Source: Escherichia coli (lineage in GTDB: Bacteria > Pseudomonadota > Gammaproteobacteria > Enterobacterales > Enterobacteriaceae). Taken from it: a stretch of DNA of 64,000 nt. The stretch is from the NCBI RefSeq assembly GCF_003334765.1, contig NZ_QOWT01000001.1; one strand, 5' to 3'. Below are positions 53,384-59,308 of the stretch, piece after piece. Positions within the stretch are counted from its first letter, which is position 1. Each line of letters starts with the position of its first letter. The translations under genes were made by a program, and so were the position numbers. The notes beneath the pieces are model-generated. The model was not told the origin of the DNA and ran no database searches. It saw nothing but the letters and a program-made list of their open reading frames with translations.

Positions 53384-54349
53384 CTACAAATCCAACACCA
53401 GGCGTTTACCCTTCGCACGCGAACAACAGATCAACATACTTTGCTGGCTGGCACGCTCTTCATCGCTAAAATATTGATCCCGATGGTCAGCTTCACCTTC
53501 CAGTATTGCTGTTTCGCAGGTTCCGCATACCCCTTCACGACATAAACATTCCACTTTCGCGGCTTTATTATTTTCAATAACCTGCAAAATAGTCATCTCT
53601 TCCGGCACCACAAACTCTTTTCCGGAACGGGCAAGCACCAGGGTAAATGCATCGCCGGTTTTGTCTTCGATAGCAAATTGCTCAAAGTGCAGCGTATCGG
53701 CGGCGATGTCCAGACGCGCAGCTTCACTTCTTACCGCTTCAATTAGCGCCTCGGGGCCACAGGTATAAACGTGTGTGCCAGGTTCGATATCCGCCAATAA
53801 TCGCGCTAATTCCAGTCGTGTTCCGGTTGATGAATGATGCAAATGGACTTTCTCAGCCTGCGGATGCTGGACTAGCTCATCACGAAATGCGCAACTTTCT
53901 GGATTTCGCGAGCAGTAATGTAGCTGCCAGTCGACGTCGCTGTGTTGCAGCTCTGCCATGTGCGACAGGAAAGGGGTGATACCAATACCGCCCGCGATAA
54001 ACAGATGCTTTCTGGCTGAGGGAATTAGCGCAAACAGGTTATTAGGCGTTGAAATCGTTAACCGATCGCCCACTTTTACCTGCTGATGCAAAAAGCGGGA
54101 ACCGCCGCGCGAGTTTTCCTCCAGCCGAACGGCAATCTGATAACAAGAGGTGTCATGCGGCGAACTCAGTAGTGAATACGCATTGCTGTACTGGTTATCA
54201 CCATCGCTCATCTGCACAATGACGTGACTTCCTCCGGTAAACGCAGGTAATGGTTTGCCATCGGTTGCCACCAGCGTGAAGCGTTTCACCTGTTCGGTAA
54301 GGGGTTCAACCTGGCTCACCTGTACTTCAAACATTTGATAGTCTGACAT
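53384..54349 (-). CDS. cntB: carnitine monooxygenase reductase subunit (ferredoxin-NAD reductase, FNR-like plus 2Fe-2S)
   Basis: ORF 321 aa (MSDYQMFEVQVSQVEPLTEQVKRFTLVATDG...), C-terminal CxxxxCxxC...C ferredoxin motif; K-12 name yeaX. Confidence 0.88.
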   Translation of the reverse strand: MSDYQMFEVQVSQVEPLTEQVKRFTLVATDGKPLPAFTGGSHVIVQMSDGDNQYSNAYSLLSSPHDTSCYQIAVRLEENSRGGSRFLHQQVKVGDRLTISTPNNLFALIPSARKHLFIAGGIGITPFLSHMAELQHSDVDWQLHYCSRNPESCAFRDELVQHPQAEKVHLHHSSTGTRLELARLLADIEPGTHVYTCGPEALIEAVRSEAARLDIAADTLHFEQFAIEDKTGDAFTLVLARSGKEFVVPEEMTILQVIENNKAAKVECLCREGVCGTCETAILEGEADHRDQYFSDEERASQQSMLICCSRAKGKRLVLDL

Positions 54350-54404
54350 TGCTGTACTCCATCAAAAATCAGCCCAGCGGCGGAAAATACCGCCGCCGAT
54401 GTCA

Positions 54405-55529
54405 TTAGTCCTTAAACACCTGCGCCAGCAGATTATGGAAATGGGCGATACCATGTTCGGAAATGCCACTACCGCTACTGTCGGCCATGATGCGCCCCTG
54501 ACCACGATAGCCACGCGATTTCAGCCCTTTCTGTACGCTTTCAACCAGACGTAAATCTTCCGGACGGAACACATCGCGATACCACTCAATCAGCGATTTT
54601 TGCTCGTCGGTTAACTCTTCATTGGTGAAGTAAATATCGTAGTTTTGCAGGGTAGTTTCAGAATCCACCGGGAATTCATAAATGACCGTCATCATCCCTT
54701 TGATCGGGGTGACGTTCAGCATCGTGCACGGCCACAGCCAGAAACCGTGGAATGCCGCATCCGTACCCTCTTCAAATTTAAACGACTGTTCGGACGGTTT
54801 GGCGAAACCGTATTGCAGCGTCCAGTTACCGTGCATGGTGTGCCAGTAACGATCAACCTGTACGGAGTCGGAGAAACCTGGATGCGCCGGACCACAGTGA
54901 TAGCACTCGAGATAGTTATCGACAATGTTCTTCCAGTTGGCAGGCGTGCGGGTGGTAAAGCGGGCCGCCAGTTTCAGATCGTGGACTTCCGGGCAGGCTT
55001 CCAGCACTTTCGCGCCCAGGCCGGGTAATTGATCTTCTACGCTGGTGGCGTTGGGGTCCATGTTGATGAAGACGAATCCGGCATATTCTTCCAGACGCAC
55101 CGGAACCAGTTGCGCTTTGTCGCTATCGAAATTGGCGACGTTTTCGCAGTTACGTGCATGGGCCAGGTTGCCATCGAGTTTGAATGCCCATGCGTGATAC
55201 GGGCAGGTAATCACATTTTTTGCTTTTCCTTCACCGCTCAACAACTGATGACCACGGTGCGGACACACGTTATAGAACGCGCGCAAAACCTTATCACGAC
55301 CGCGTACCAGCACGATGCTTTCGCCAATGATCTCACGCGTCACATAATCATTGGCATTCGCCAGTTCGCTGCTGTGAGCGACGCAAATCCAGCTTTTGGC
55401 GAAGACGTTCTCTTTTTCGTGTTCAAACGCGTTCTGATCGGTATAAAAACGGGCAGGAATGGTCCACGCCTCTTGCGGGTTAGCGCAAAAATTTTCGGGT
55501 AGTACAAAGTCAGGGCTCAGATTGCTCAT
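54405..55529 (-). CDS. cntA: carnitine monooxygenase oxygenase subunit (Rieske 2Fe-2S)
   Basis: ORF-track frame 54405..55649; start placed at ATG 55527-55529 (MSNLSPDFVLPENF...) giving 374 aa; Rieske CPHRG...CPYHAW motif; K-12 name yeaW. Confidence 0.88.
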   Translation of the reverse strand: MSNLSPDFVLPENFCANPQEAWTIPARFYTDQNAFEHEKENVFAKSWICVAHSSELANANDYVTREIIGESIVLVRGRDKVLRAFYNVCPHRGHQLLSGEGKAKNVITCPYHAWAFKLDGNLAHARNCENVANFDSDKAQLVPVRLEEYAGFVFINMDPNATSVEDQLPGLGAKVLEACPEVHDLKLAARFTTRTPANWKNIVDNYLECYHCGPAHPGFSDSVQVDRYWHTMHGNWTLQYGFAKPSEQSFKFEEGTDAAFHGFWLWPCTMLNVTPIKGMMTVIYEFPVDSETTLQNYDIYFTNEELTDEQKSLIEWYRDVFRPEDLRLVESVQKGLKSRGYRGQGRIMADSSGSGISEHGIAHFHNLLAQVFKD

Positions 55530-55560
55530 AGGGATACCTTTATCGTTAGGATGATGGCGC

Positions 55561-57177: not shown

Positions 57178-57196
57178 CAAATAAACTGGTTTGACC

Positions 57197-58282
57197 TTAA
57201 CGCAAAATAATTTTGCAAATCGCGTCGGCAACCTGTGGCGTGGTGGCATTGCCTTTCATATCAGGTGTTTTCGGCCCGTGAGCAATCACTTCTTCAATTG
57301 CTGCCAGAATACCGTTATGCGCTTGCTGGAAACGCTCATCGCCATTGCCGAGAAAATCGAGCATCATTGCCCCGGCCCAAATCGTGGCGATAGGGTTAGC
57401 AATATTTTTCCCGTAGATATCCGGCGCGGAACCGTGGACAGGCTCGAAGAGCGACGGGAAAGTGCGTTCCGGATTCAGGTTGGCGGATGGGGCAATGCCA
57501 ATGGTGCCGGTGCAGGCCGGGCCAAGATCGGAAAGGATATCGCCAAACAAATTGGACGCCACCACCACATCGAATCGTTCCGGCTGCATCACAAAACGCG
57601 CGCAGAGAATATCAATATGCTGCTTGTCCCAGCGGATCTCCGGGTAATTCTCGGCCATTGCTTCCACTCGCTCATCCCAGTACGGCATGCTGATGGCTAA
57701 ACCGTTCGATTTAGTGGCAGAAGTTAGTGTCTTACGTGGACGGCTTTGCGCAAGTTCGAAGGCATAACGCAAAATGCGATCGACACCACGGCGGGTAAAT
57801 ACCGATTCCTGAATGACGACTTCATGCTCTGTACCTTCATTCACTCTACCGCCGAGCGAGGAATATTCGCCTTCGGTGTTTTCCCTGACCACGTAAAAAT
57901 CGATGTCGCCAGGCTGTTTTCCCGCCAGCGGGCAGGGAACGCCAGGAAAGAGACGAACCGGGCGCAGGTTGACGTACTGGTCGAATTCACGACGAAATTT
58001 CAGCAGCGAACCCCACAACGAAATATGGTCCGGAACGGTATCCGGCCAGCCGACGGCACCAAAATAGATGGCGTCGAAACGGCTAAGTTGCTCATGCCAG
58101 TCGTCCGGCATCATTTTACCGTGATGGCTGTAATACTCGCAGCTCGCCCACTCCATTTGCTCAAAACTCAAGGCGAAGCCCCAGCGCTCAGCGGCAGCCT
58201 GTAACACGCGAATCCCTTCAGGAAGGACTTCTTTGCCAATCCCGTCTCCCGGGATCGCAGCAATACGCATCGTTTTCATCAT
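57197..58282 (-). CDS. dmlA: D-malate / 3-isopropylmalate dehydrogenase (decarboxylating)
   Basis: ORF 361 aa (MMKTMRIAAIPGDGIGKEVLPEGIRVLQAAAERWGF...), isocitrate/isopropylmalate dehydrogenase family. Confidence 0.9.
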   Translation of the reverse strand: MMKTMRIAAIPGDGIGKEVLPEGIRVLQAAAERWGFALSFEQMEWASCEYYSHHGKMMPDDWHEQLSRFDAIYFGAVGWPDTVPDHISLWGSLLKFRREFDQYVNLRPVRLFPGVPCPLAGKQPGDIDFYVVRENTEGEYSSLGGRVNEGTEHEVVIQESVFTRRGVDRILRYAFELAQSRPRKTLTSATKSNGLAISMPYWDERVEAMAENYPEIRWDKQHIDILCARFVMQPERFDVVVASNLFGDILSDLGPACTGTIGIAPSANLNPERTFPSLFEPVHGSAPDIYGKNIANPIATIWAGAMMLDFLGNGDERFQQAHNGILAAIEEVIAHGPKTPDMKGNATTPQVADAICKIILR

Positions 58283-58384
58283 TGGGTTCTCACTTCCTGA
58301 CCATCAAAATTGACAACATCACCATCCTATAATTGACTGAAAAGGAATTAATCCCCGTAACTGGTGAAACATAAAACACGAATC

Positions 58385-59308
58385 ATGAATAATTTACCGC
58401 TGCTGAATGATTTGCGCGTCTTTATGCTGGTGGCTCGCCGGGCTGGTTTTGCCGCCGTGGCGGAAGAACTGGGCGTTTCACCGGCGTTCGTCAGCAAGCG
58501 CATCGCCTTGCTGGAGCAAACGCTAAACGTGGTGTTGTTACACCGCACCACCCGCCGCGTCACCATTACCGAAGAAGGAGAGCGGATTTATGAATGGGCG
58601 CAGCGGATTTTGCAGGATGTCGGTCAGATGATGGACGAACTTTCTGACGTGCGTCAGGTGCCGCAGGGGATGCTGCGTATTATCAGCAGCTTTGGTTTTG
58701 GACGACAGGTGGTGGCTCCGGCGTTATCAGCGCTGGCGAAGGCGTATCCGCAACTGGAATTACGTTTTGATGTGGAAGACCGACTGGTCGATTTGGTCAA
58801 TGAAGGTGTCGATCTCGATATTCGCATTGGCGATGACATCGCCCCTAATTTAATCGCCCGCAAACTGGCGACCAATTACCGTATTCTCTGCGCGTCGCCG
58901 GAATTTATTGCGCAACATGGCGCGCCGAAACATTTAACCGATCTTTCTGCATTGCCGTGCCTGGTCATTAAAGAGCGCGATCATCCTTTTGGTGTCTGGC
59001 AATTACGCAATAAAGAAGGCCCCCATGCGATTAAAGTCACCGGCCCACTGTCGTCTAATCATGGAGAAATTGTCCATCAGTGGTGTCTCGATGGGCAGGG
59101 GATTGCTCTGCGTTCCTGGTGGGATGTTAGCGAAAACATTGCCAGTGGTCATTTAGTGCAAGTGCTACCGGAATATTACCAGCCAGCGAACGTCTGGGCC
59201 GTTTATGTTTCAAGGCTGGCGACGTCAGCGAAAGTGCGGATAACGGTAGAATTTTTACGCCAGTATTTTGCCGAGCACTACCCGAATTTTTCACTGGAGC
59301 ATGCCTGA
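58385..59308 (+). CDS. dmlR: LysR-family regulator DmlR (YeaT)
   Basis: ORF-track frame from 58364; start placed at ATG 58385 (MNNLPLLNDLRVFMLVARRAGFAAVAEELGVSPAFVSKRI...) giving 307 aa; divergent from dmlA. Confidence 0.85.
   Translation: MNNLPLLNDLRVFMLVARRAGFAAVAEELGVSPAFVSKRIALLEQTLNVVLLHRTTRRVTITEEGERIYEWAQRILQDVGQMMDELSDVRQVPQGMLRIISSFGFGRQVVAPALSALAKAYPQLELRFDVEDRLVDLVNEGVDLDIRIGDDIAPNLIARKLATNYRILCASPEFIAQHGAPKHLTDLSALPCLVIKERDHPFGVWQLRNKEGPHAIKVTGPLSSNHGEIVHQWCLDGQGIALRSWWDVSENIASGHLVQVLPEYYQPANVWAVYVSRLATSAKVRITVEFLRQYFAEHYPNFSLEHA

Follow-up and report, generated by a model that had tools for sequence, protein, structure and literature searches.

A palindrome at yeaV in K-12-type Escherichia coli DNA as the probable seam of a 225-bp deletion in the carnitine monooxygenase cluster

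We analyzed the region upstream of yeaV, the transporter gene that lies with yeaW and yeaX in the carnitine monooxygenase cluster and next to dmlA and dmlR, in a 64-kb stretch of Escherichia coli DNA (contig NZ_QOWT01000001.1), hereafter called the window; all positions are counted from its first base. A perfect inverted repeat, GTAACA-N9-TGTTAC, is present exactly at 57035-57055, as an original prediction made from the sequence alone had reported. That prediction placed the repeat in the yeaV leader, as a possible site for an unassigned regulator. Comparison with related loci indicates that this repeat is very probably no regulatory element but the seam left when 225 bp were lost within E. 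coli. The yeaV gene of the window lacks its native start codon, ribosome-binding site, 5' untranslated region (5'UTR), and first transmembrane helix (TM1).

The palindrome and the 225-bp deletion

The features on which this reading depends are as follows.

57035-57055, no strand: palindrome GTAACA-AAATTTGCA-TGTTAC, very probably a deletion chimera; among 82 loci found only in the K-12 locus (L002)
57043, no strand: deletion junction with one shared T (1-bp microhomology), from comparison of the window with strain ECONIH4
57050-57055, minus strand: intergenic-derived arm GTAACA, within the 17 bp that separate the -35-like TTGTTT from the -10-like AATAAT
57035-57040, minus strand: coding-derived arm, the end of codon 43 and codons 44-45 (TTT GTT ACG, Phe-Val-Thr)
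55561-57042, minus strand: yeaV remnant, a 5'-truncated BCCT transporter gene with codons 43-536 of the ancestral 536-amino-acid (aa) protein
55561-57006, minus strand: longest yeaV open reading frame (ORF), 481 aa, with a TTG start at 57006

A 501-bp probe over dmlA/yeaV was 100% identical to K-12 strains, which identifies the region 53384-59308 as K-12-type DNA. Strains ECONIH4 and SE11 carry an intact yeaV of 1611 bp that encodes a 536-aa protein (WP_000987525.1). When the window was compared with ECONIH4, the flanks were identical over 258 nt upstream and 244 nt downstream, and exactly 225 bp (L001 3259-3483) were absent from the window. On the gene strand, with slashes at the breakpoints, the intact allele reads ...TTTATGTAACATGCAAAT / AATCAATTTGTTAAAC ... 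(225 bp) ... ATATACACT / TTTGTTACGCGTACG..., and the window reads ...TTTATGTAACATGCAAAT / TTTGTTACGCGTACG... The 225 bp hold 96 bp of promoter and 5'UTR and, from the start codon on, the first 42 codons with TM1. The intact allele of SE11 and ECONIH4 thus shares with the window 100% identical flanks over the 501 bp compared and the same YeaW, and differs in its 225 extra bp and in having no GTAACA-N9-TGTTAC; its nearest equivalent is an imperfect GTAACA-N15-TGTTAA.

Annotation and protein comparisons agree with this truncation. A tblastn search with full-length YeaV covered only residues 43-536 in K-12, and RefSeq annotates yeaV on K-12 DNA as a pseudogene ('incomplete; partial in the middle of a contig; missing N-terminus'). 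The annotated pseudogene begins at what is position 57042 of the window, the first codon kept. The yeaV gene of NEBExpress, a derivative of a B strain, is likewise flagged by RefSeq ('incomplete; missing N-terminus'). The window protein passes the score cut-off of the NCBIfam equivalog NF007412 (968.8 bits; cut-off 647) while covering just positions 56-536 of the 536-position profile, short of a full-length protein with 12 transmembrane helices including TM1. The assignment of yeaV to the BCCT transporter family in the original prediction therefore stands; the 5' truncation had been missed.

Full-length YeaV aligned with DddT (E = 3e-100) from residue 16 and with CaiT (E = 8e-70) from residue 26, in both cases to the end of the protein, so the missing residues correspond to the first transmembrane helix of the family. 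The YeaV N-terminus aligns near that of the solved DddT, CaiT, and BetP structures, and TM1, which lies within the missing residues (PLISISLVAILFIAAALSLF onward), belongs to the fold seen in solved BCCT transporters. Unlike CaiT, BetP, and DddT, the window remnant is without residues 1-42, or residues 1-55 if counted from the TTG, which amounts to TM1 and part of TM2. This TTG at 57006 is the first in-frame start of the remnant and is preceded, 2 nt upstream, by AGG only, so translation of the remnant is probably poor. We infer that yeaV in the window is a non-functional or barely functional pseudogene.

The origin of the palindrome would follow from the same event. The deletion would have fused yeaV codon 43 to the -10-like AATAAT at its third base, and this fusion would have put the intergenic GTAACA, by accident, 9 bp from the TGTTAC of Phe43-Val44-Thr45. 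In the intact allele, the two arms are 234 bp apart. The right arm is ancestral yeaV coding sequence and the spacer holds the junction at 57043, so the location in the yeaV leader did not hold for the palindrome as a whole. The deletion may be either a single event with 1-bp microhomology or two events, and the palindrome is chimeric in both cases. A 7-nt sequence, TTTGTTA, lies 6 nt into the deleted segment from its left end, with a second copy directly after the right end; recombination between these repeats was considered as the mechanism and rejected, since it would excise 219 bp and not 225 bp.

We weighed this reading against the possibility that the palindrome is a true operator, bound by an unassigned dimeric regulator at the yeaV promoter. 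In its favor are the perfect 6+6 symmetry and the AT-rich surroundings, upstream of where K-12 yeaV is annotated to start, and the specific pattern, allowing at most one mismatch, appeared in just 6 of 100 shuffles, a low expectation that applies to a hexamer picked after the fact. The symmetry itself is no more than expected by chance and is statistically ordinary: the window contains 30 perfect inverted repeats of the same 6-N9-6 form, against ~15 in shuffles, and when any spacer of 0-20 nt is allowed the number of perfect 6-bp inverted repeats is 545. One of the 30 lies at 54378-54398, in the 55-bp spacer between yeaW and yeaX.

The comparison with other loci decides against the operator. 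The original prediction had made the site depend on conservation in cntAB-bearing relatives, and the exact palindrome is absent from all of the other 81 related loci. The coding arm varies among relatives at synonymous positions (GTC ACC, GTT ACC, or GTG ACC at the Val-Thr codons, with differences in the preceding codon as well), as coding DNA would be expected to do. Conservation of the intergenic arm is only partial (GTAACA, GTAGCA, GCAACA, GTAAAG, GTTACA, or GTATCA). With its arms 234 bp apart ancestrally, the site is confined to the deletion allele, which is recent, its flanks matching those of the intact allele at 100% identity; a regulator could not have co-evolved with such a site. An operator is thus highly improbable, a role for an unassigned regulator found no support, and on these alignments the palindrome probably binds no dedicated regulator.

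Polarity and spread of the deletion

Distribution of the two alleles was analyzed in 5426 complete E. coli genomes with the 501-bp dmlA/yeaV probe, which matched 4375 of them. In many genomes the probe matched in two pieces over 726 bp, as opposed to 501 bp in the window. The 225-bp segment was found in 2931 complete genomes, so that about two thirds of the locus-bearing genomes retain it and ~1444 of 4375 (33%) are without it. This estimate agrees with the 12 single-piece matches among 40 evenly spaced rows of the survey. The deletion allele is carried by K-12, C600, B/BL21-type strains, and many other strains. The remaining 1051 of the 5426 genomes had no match to the dmlA-yeaV junction region, indicating that the locus is variably present in E. 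coli. Other forms of the region were also seen. Only an internal part of yeaV matches in at least one strain, 98208 (H40), and a third allele is present at this spot in HS-02 (H65), where only bases 1-124 of the 225-bp segment match, and in BS-04 (H66), where the junction probe spans 292 bp and not 305 bp.

A scan across species, with one genome per species, returned 80 loci, and the N-terminal YeaV residues are encoded in all 80. These loci include Escherichia albertii, Escherichia whittamii, Citrobacter, Shimwellia, Yersinia, Serratia, and Xenorhabdus, as well as Neisseriaceae, Achromobacter, Psychrobacter, and Acinetobacter, and the DNA of Escherichia and Citrobacter can be aligned through the entire 225 bp. 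The reverse polarity, in which the short K-12 form is ancestral and 225 bp were inserted elsewhere and extended yeaV, has nothing beyond the formal symmetry of any insertion or deletion to recommend it. We consider it refuted, because all outgroups from E. albertii to Acinetobacter encode the N-terminal residues, and these residues align with solved BCCT structures and belong to a family profile 536 positions long.

The comparisons place the deletion as a derived and recent event that arose within E. coli. That it is recent follows from the identical flanks and from YeaW, which is the same protein (WP_000067822.1) in the deleted and intact alleles. In E. whittamii (L031 4001-5519), yeaV matches in two pieces, residues 1-190 and 214-536, a pattern suggestive of a separate deletion inside the gene, and so of yeaV having decayed a second time in the genus.

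The ancestral yeaV promoter and a candidate DmlR box

The region between dmlA and yeaV contains the following features; the promoter elements are predicted from the alignment and the breakpoint.

57063-57068, minus strand: -35-like TTGTTT within the conserved block AATTGTTTAA, in the same register from Escherichia to Xenorhabdus and Yersinia
57040-57045, minus strand: hybrid hexamer AATTTT in place of the putative ancestral -10-like AATAAT; only AAT (57043-57045) is original
57078-57096, minus strand: box B, CGTGTTTTATGGCTTTCCG, candidate site for DmlR (LysR type) upstream of yeaV, from a shared 13-mer and conservation in 29 loci
57100-57119, minus strand: box A, TTCACCTTTTATTGTTTCCG, a second conserved block about two helical turns from box B
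57152-57178, minus strand: intrinsic terminator 3' of dmlA, a 10-bp stem and T-run, with the stem invariant in Escherichia and Citrobacter
58363-58380, minus strand: dmlA-proximal box, CGTGTTTTATGTTTCACC, at a distance of 4 nt from where dmlR starts

Sequences from 29 enterobacterial loci aligned without gaps over ~115 bp upstream of yeaV, in the register TCACA-N5-ATTAtTTaCG-N3-yGTGTTTTAT-N3-TTCAC-N9-aATTGTTTAA-(17 bp)-nAtAnT-N3-5-TTGTTAA. The ancestral order would have been dmlA, its terminator, this conserved regulatory block, a 5'UTR with two small hairpins, an AGGAG Shine-Dalgarno sequence, and the 536-codon yeaV. Within the block, TTGTTT may serve as a weak -35 element and AATAAT (in E. 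coli) as the -10 element, with a conserved 17-bp spacer. Scans of both alleles for the sigma-70 consensus called no promoter, and TTGTTT matches the -35 consensus at 3 of 6 positions only.

The left breakpoint would cut the -10-like element after AAT, so that half of it and the conserved TTGTTAA would be removed. The same event took out the two-hairpin 5'UTR and the AGGAG Shine-Dalgarno sequence, together with the start codon and the coding sequence through codon 42. The dmlA terminator, box A, and box B are kept in the window, upstream of the seam. From this arrangement, yeaV'-yeaW-yeaX has presumably lost most of its own promoter activity.

The hairpins of the intact 5'UTR (L001 3270-3360), CUGGC-AAAA-GCCAG and GGGC-UUUUAU-GCCC (z = -3.06), have invariant stems and variable loops across Escherichia and Citrobacter, and the second adjoins the AGGAG. 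They may form a translational control element. An Rfam scan of the intact intergenic region found no known RNA element, the only match being terminator-like and below threshold. The imperfect ancestral repeat around the -10-like box, GTAACA-N15-TGTTAA, was also considered as an operator and rejected, since its left half does not retain complementarity in Citrobacter, Yersinia, and Xenorhabdus.

The conserved upstream signal of yeaV is instead the GTGTTTTAT-N3-TTCAC box. The 13-mer TTCGTGTTTTATG occurs only twice in the 64 kb, at 57086-57098 (box B, yeaV) and at 58370-58382 (the dmlR-dmlA intergenic region). The box is conserved across genera, as yGTGTTTTATGTTTCACC at dmlA and, in the 29 enterobacterial loci, as yGTGTTTTAT-N3-TTCAC at yeaV. 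Downstream of both boxes comes an ATT-rich block, at a distance of 27 nt in the two sequences counted (dmlA of E. coli and yeaV of a Citrobacter). LysR-type operators at divergent promoters offer a close parallel: GTGTTTTAT-N2-3-TTCAC forms a GTG...CAC dyad 4 nt from the dmlR start, and upstream of yeaV the candidate box is found again, with constant spacing to the -35-like element. Such geometry is usual for a LysR recognition site. The yeaV-proximal box departs from this pattern in Escherichia. Every species of the genus reads TTTCCG there, in place of the TTCAC(G/A) of Citrobacter, Yersinia, Serratia, and Shimwellia. This change, specific to the lineage, affects the dyad's right half and may weaken the candidate box.

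DmlR is the orthologue of Acinetobacter CarR, with 45% identity, according to Piskol et al. 2024 (PMC11353897). Because of the shared conserved box, its LysR-like geometry, and this orthology, DmlR most likely binds the GTGTTTTAT-N3-TTCAC box and would regulate yeaVWX as well as dmlA. The conserved upstream block thus yields a concrete prediction for the control of yeaVWX.

Other candidate inputs were examined in the same region. A scan for CRP sites (TGTGA-N6-TCACA, at most 3 mismatches) gave fewer matches than shuffled sequences, with just a 3-mismatch match overlapping one palindrome arm and a 2-mismatch match inside the terminator in this region. In the literature, yeaV is listed as a CRP target by genomic SELEX (systematic evolution of ligands by exponential enrichment; PMC3105977), and yeaV and yeaW rise ~2-fold at growth transitions in O157:H7 Sakai (PMC2241611). 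O157:H7 strains have the segment of the intact allele. The rise in Sakai and the SELEX listing hint at control of yeaV by carbon limitation.

The carnitine cluster, its relatives, and strain phenotypes

The neighboring genes of the cluster are listed below.

53384-54349, minus strand: yeaX (cntB), carnitine monooxygenase reductase subunit, 321 aa, from the ORF, domain matches, and the RefSeq name on identical K-12 DNA
54405-55529, minus strand: yeaW (cntA), Rieske-type oxygenase subunit of carnitine monooxygenase, 374 aa, from alignment to the CntA structure (PDB 6Y8J)
57197-58282, minus strand: dmlA, D-malate/tartrate dehydrogenase (decarboxylating), 361 aa, from TIGR02089 and the RefSeq name
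58385-59308, plus strand: dmlR, LysR-type regulator, 307 aa, divergent from dmlA, from RefSeq on identical K-12 DNA

All five genes are at the positions originally given, as checked against the RefSeq annotation of identical K-12 DNA. YeaW aligned with Acinetobacter baumannii CntA (PDB 6Y8J) over residues 4-371 (E = 9e-197). Its Rieske motifs CPHRGH and CPYHAW were found and aligned with those of 6Y8J, and CYHCGPAH, for the His ligands of the mononuclear iron, is conserved. E208 of YeaW (in LECYHC) pairs with the E of MECYHC in 6Y8J, so that the bridging residue is a glutamate and not an aspartate; this glutamate (E205 in A. baumannii numbering) is cited as a signature of CntA, a group V Rieske oxygenase (PMC5433236). 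The yeaX gene lies 55 bp downstream of yeaW and has matches to FNR-like and plant-type 2Fe-2S ferredoxin domains, and the RefSeq product names of both genes are carnitine monooxygenase subunits. DmlA scored 565 bits against TIGR02089 (cut-off 470.4). The dmlA gene of K-12 strain CETR2G40 (L002 2019-3104) carries a pseudogene flag for 'too many ambiguous residues', which is an artefact of assembly quality. By tblastn, DmlR shows 100% identity to the DmlR annotated at the K-12 locus; its best NCBIfam match is the paralogue TtdR at 357, below the cut-off of 398, as expected for a relative that is not TtdR. The longest dmlR ORF in the ORF list begins at 58364.

The gene cluster with which A. baumannii degrades carnitine was reportedly described by Zhu in 2014. 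In that cluster, as in the window, a LysR gene diverges from a D-malate dehydrogenase gene that is followed by genes for a BCCT transporter, CntA, and CntB. It differs in having hyd and msadh, neither of which is in the E. coli cluster, and the transporter is truncated in the window. The gap between dmlA and yeaV is also different, with a terminator and promoter block of at least 250 bp in enterobacteria and ~60-110 bp in Acinetobacter. Piskol et al. 2024 (PMC11353897) give the A. baumannii order as carR-mdh-bcct-hyd-cntA-msadh-cntB, describe the E. coli cluster as orthologues of carR/mdh/bcct/cntA/cntB (45, 72, 56, 72, and 52% identity) without hyd and msadh, and report the conversion of carnitine to malic semialdehyde, D-malate, and pyruvate with the A. 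baumannii enzymes.

The gene cluster and its metabolic logic are therefore already known. The gene identities and the carnitine-to-trimethylamine logic of the original prediction were borne out, and both had been published (PMC11353897). The further oxidation of malic semialdehyde that it proposed is a step that is not encoded here, in line with the description of the E. coli cluster as lacking a malic-semialdehyde dehydrogenase (PMC11353897). Some Citrobacter and Xenorhabdus loci keep a GabD-like gene between yeaW and yeaX, the position of msadh in A. baumannii. In Citrobacter sp. Awk 4 (L005 6807-8255) it encodes a 482-aa GabD-like semialdehyde dehydrogenase (TIGR01780, 694 bits; cut-off 646), and a GabD-like gene occupies the equivalent slot in loci L007, L011, L012, L015, L018, L021, L027, L028, L032, and L080. 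It is absent from the clusters of Escherichia, some Citrobacter, Yersinia, and Serratia, and E. coli therefore has no cluster-encoded malic-semialdehyde dehydrogenase.

Phenotypes of laboratory strains bear on the deletion. Strains BL21, B, and K12 did not grow on carnitine, and BL21 extracts had no detectable carnitine monooxygenase activity, which led to the suggestion, in the sections on these strains, that in E. coli the operon 'might serve a different physiological function' (PMC11353897). All three belong to deletion-type lineages, which lends circumstantial support to a deletion at yeaV. Those sections make no mention of a truncated transporter gene without its promoter-proximal region, and the truncation is not described in the literature passages on yeaV that we consulted. 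Zhu et al. are said to have used SE11 as the source of E. coli CntA, and SE11 carries the intact yeaV allele. A review table lists SE11 as positive for conversion of carnitine to trimethylamine (PMC6200775), an entry of little weight as another one in the table fails: its '+' for E. coli K12 was traced to Rath 2017, where the strain is mentioned only as the DNA source for a quantitative PCR standard, and was rejected as evidence of activity. The association of the intact allele of SE11 with carnitine conversion is likewise circumstantial.

We also considered that the junction was co-opted, with the hybrid -10 AATTTT and the palindrome forming a new promoter or operator under selection, which would explain why a third of the genomes carry it. 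The allele is frequent, occurring in ~33% of the complete genomes that have the locus, both alleles encode the same YeaW with no decay of the downstream genes, and the -35-like TTGTTT and boxes A and B are still upstream of the seam. The frequency can, however, be put down to shared clonal descent and to the over-representation of laboratory and ST10-like strains, and identical flanks mark a recent event, so that the absence of decay says little. The consensus scan calls no promoter at the junction, and, besides the inactive BL21 extracts, public expression data show no cntA transcription according to PMC11353897. We judge such co-option unlikely.

Several points weigh against reading the palindrome as the seam of a disabling deletion. 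Some protein may bind the seam by chance. The deletion is common (~1444 of 4375), so it is not under strong counter-selection and could even be favored. The assignment of TTGTTT and AATAAT as putative -35 and -10 elements comes from conservation, and the consensus scan called neither. Radi et al. 2024 (PMC10971958) report differences in metabolite uptake in knockout and overexpression mutants of yeaV. Provided that these mutants came from standard K-12 collections, as we assume, and that the differences are genuine and specific, the 481-aa remnant would retain some activity, at any rate under expression from a plasmid.

The yeaV gene of the reference strain is presumably b1801, listed at 481 aa in UniProt and TCDB. 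In knockout and overexpression screens (PMC10971958, PMC3884056), K-12 yeaV has been handled like any other orphan transporter, although it is a 5'-truncated remnant. By closest match, 98.1% of gut cntA amplicons were related to E. coli sequences (PMC5433236), and a common allele that disables uptake or expression bears on estimates of the capacity of the gut for trimethylamine formation. The comparisons also provide that yeaV of K-12 and B is a pseudogene flagged by RefSeq, that the deletion is common in E. coli, and that the intact promoter and dmlA share a likely DmlR box.

Taken together, the data would allow the reading that the deletion, and not a different function of the operon, is why K-12 and B lack activity and growth on carnitine, and that intact strains would express yeaVWX from a DmlR-controlled GTGTTTTAT-N3-TTCAC promoter; we hold this combined proposal to be possible rather than probable. 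If it is true, cntA gene counts in gut metagenomes and transporter screens based on K-12 would need allele-aware correction, and D-malate sensing would be coupled to carnitine uptake and trimethylamine release in E. coli with the intact allele, which is about two thirds of the locus-bearing genomes, including SE11.

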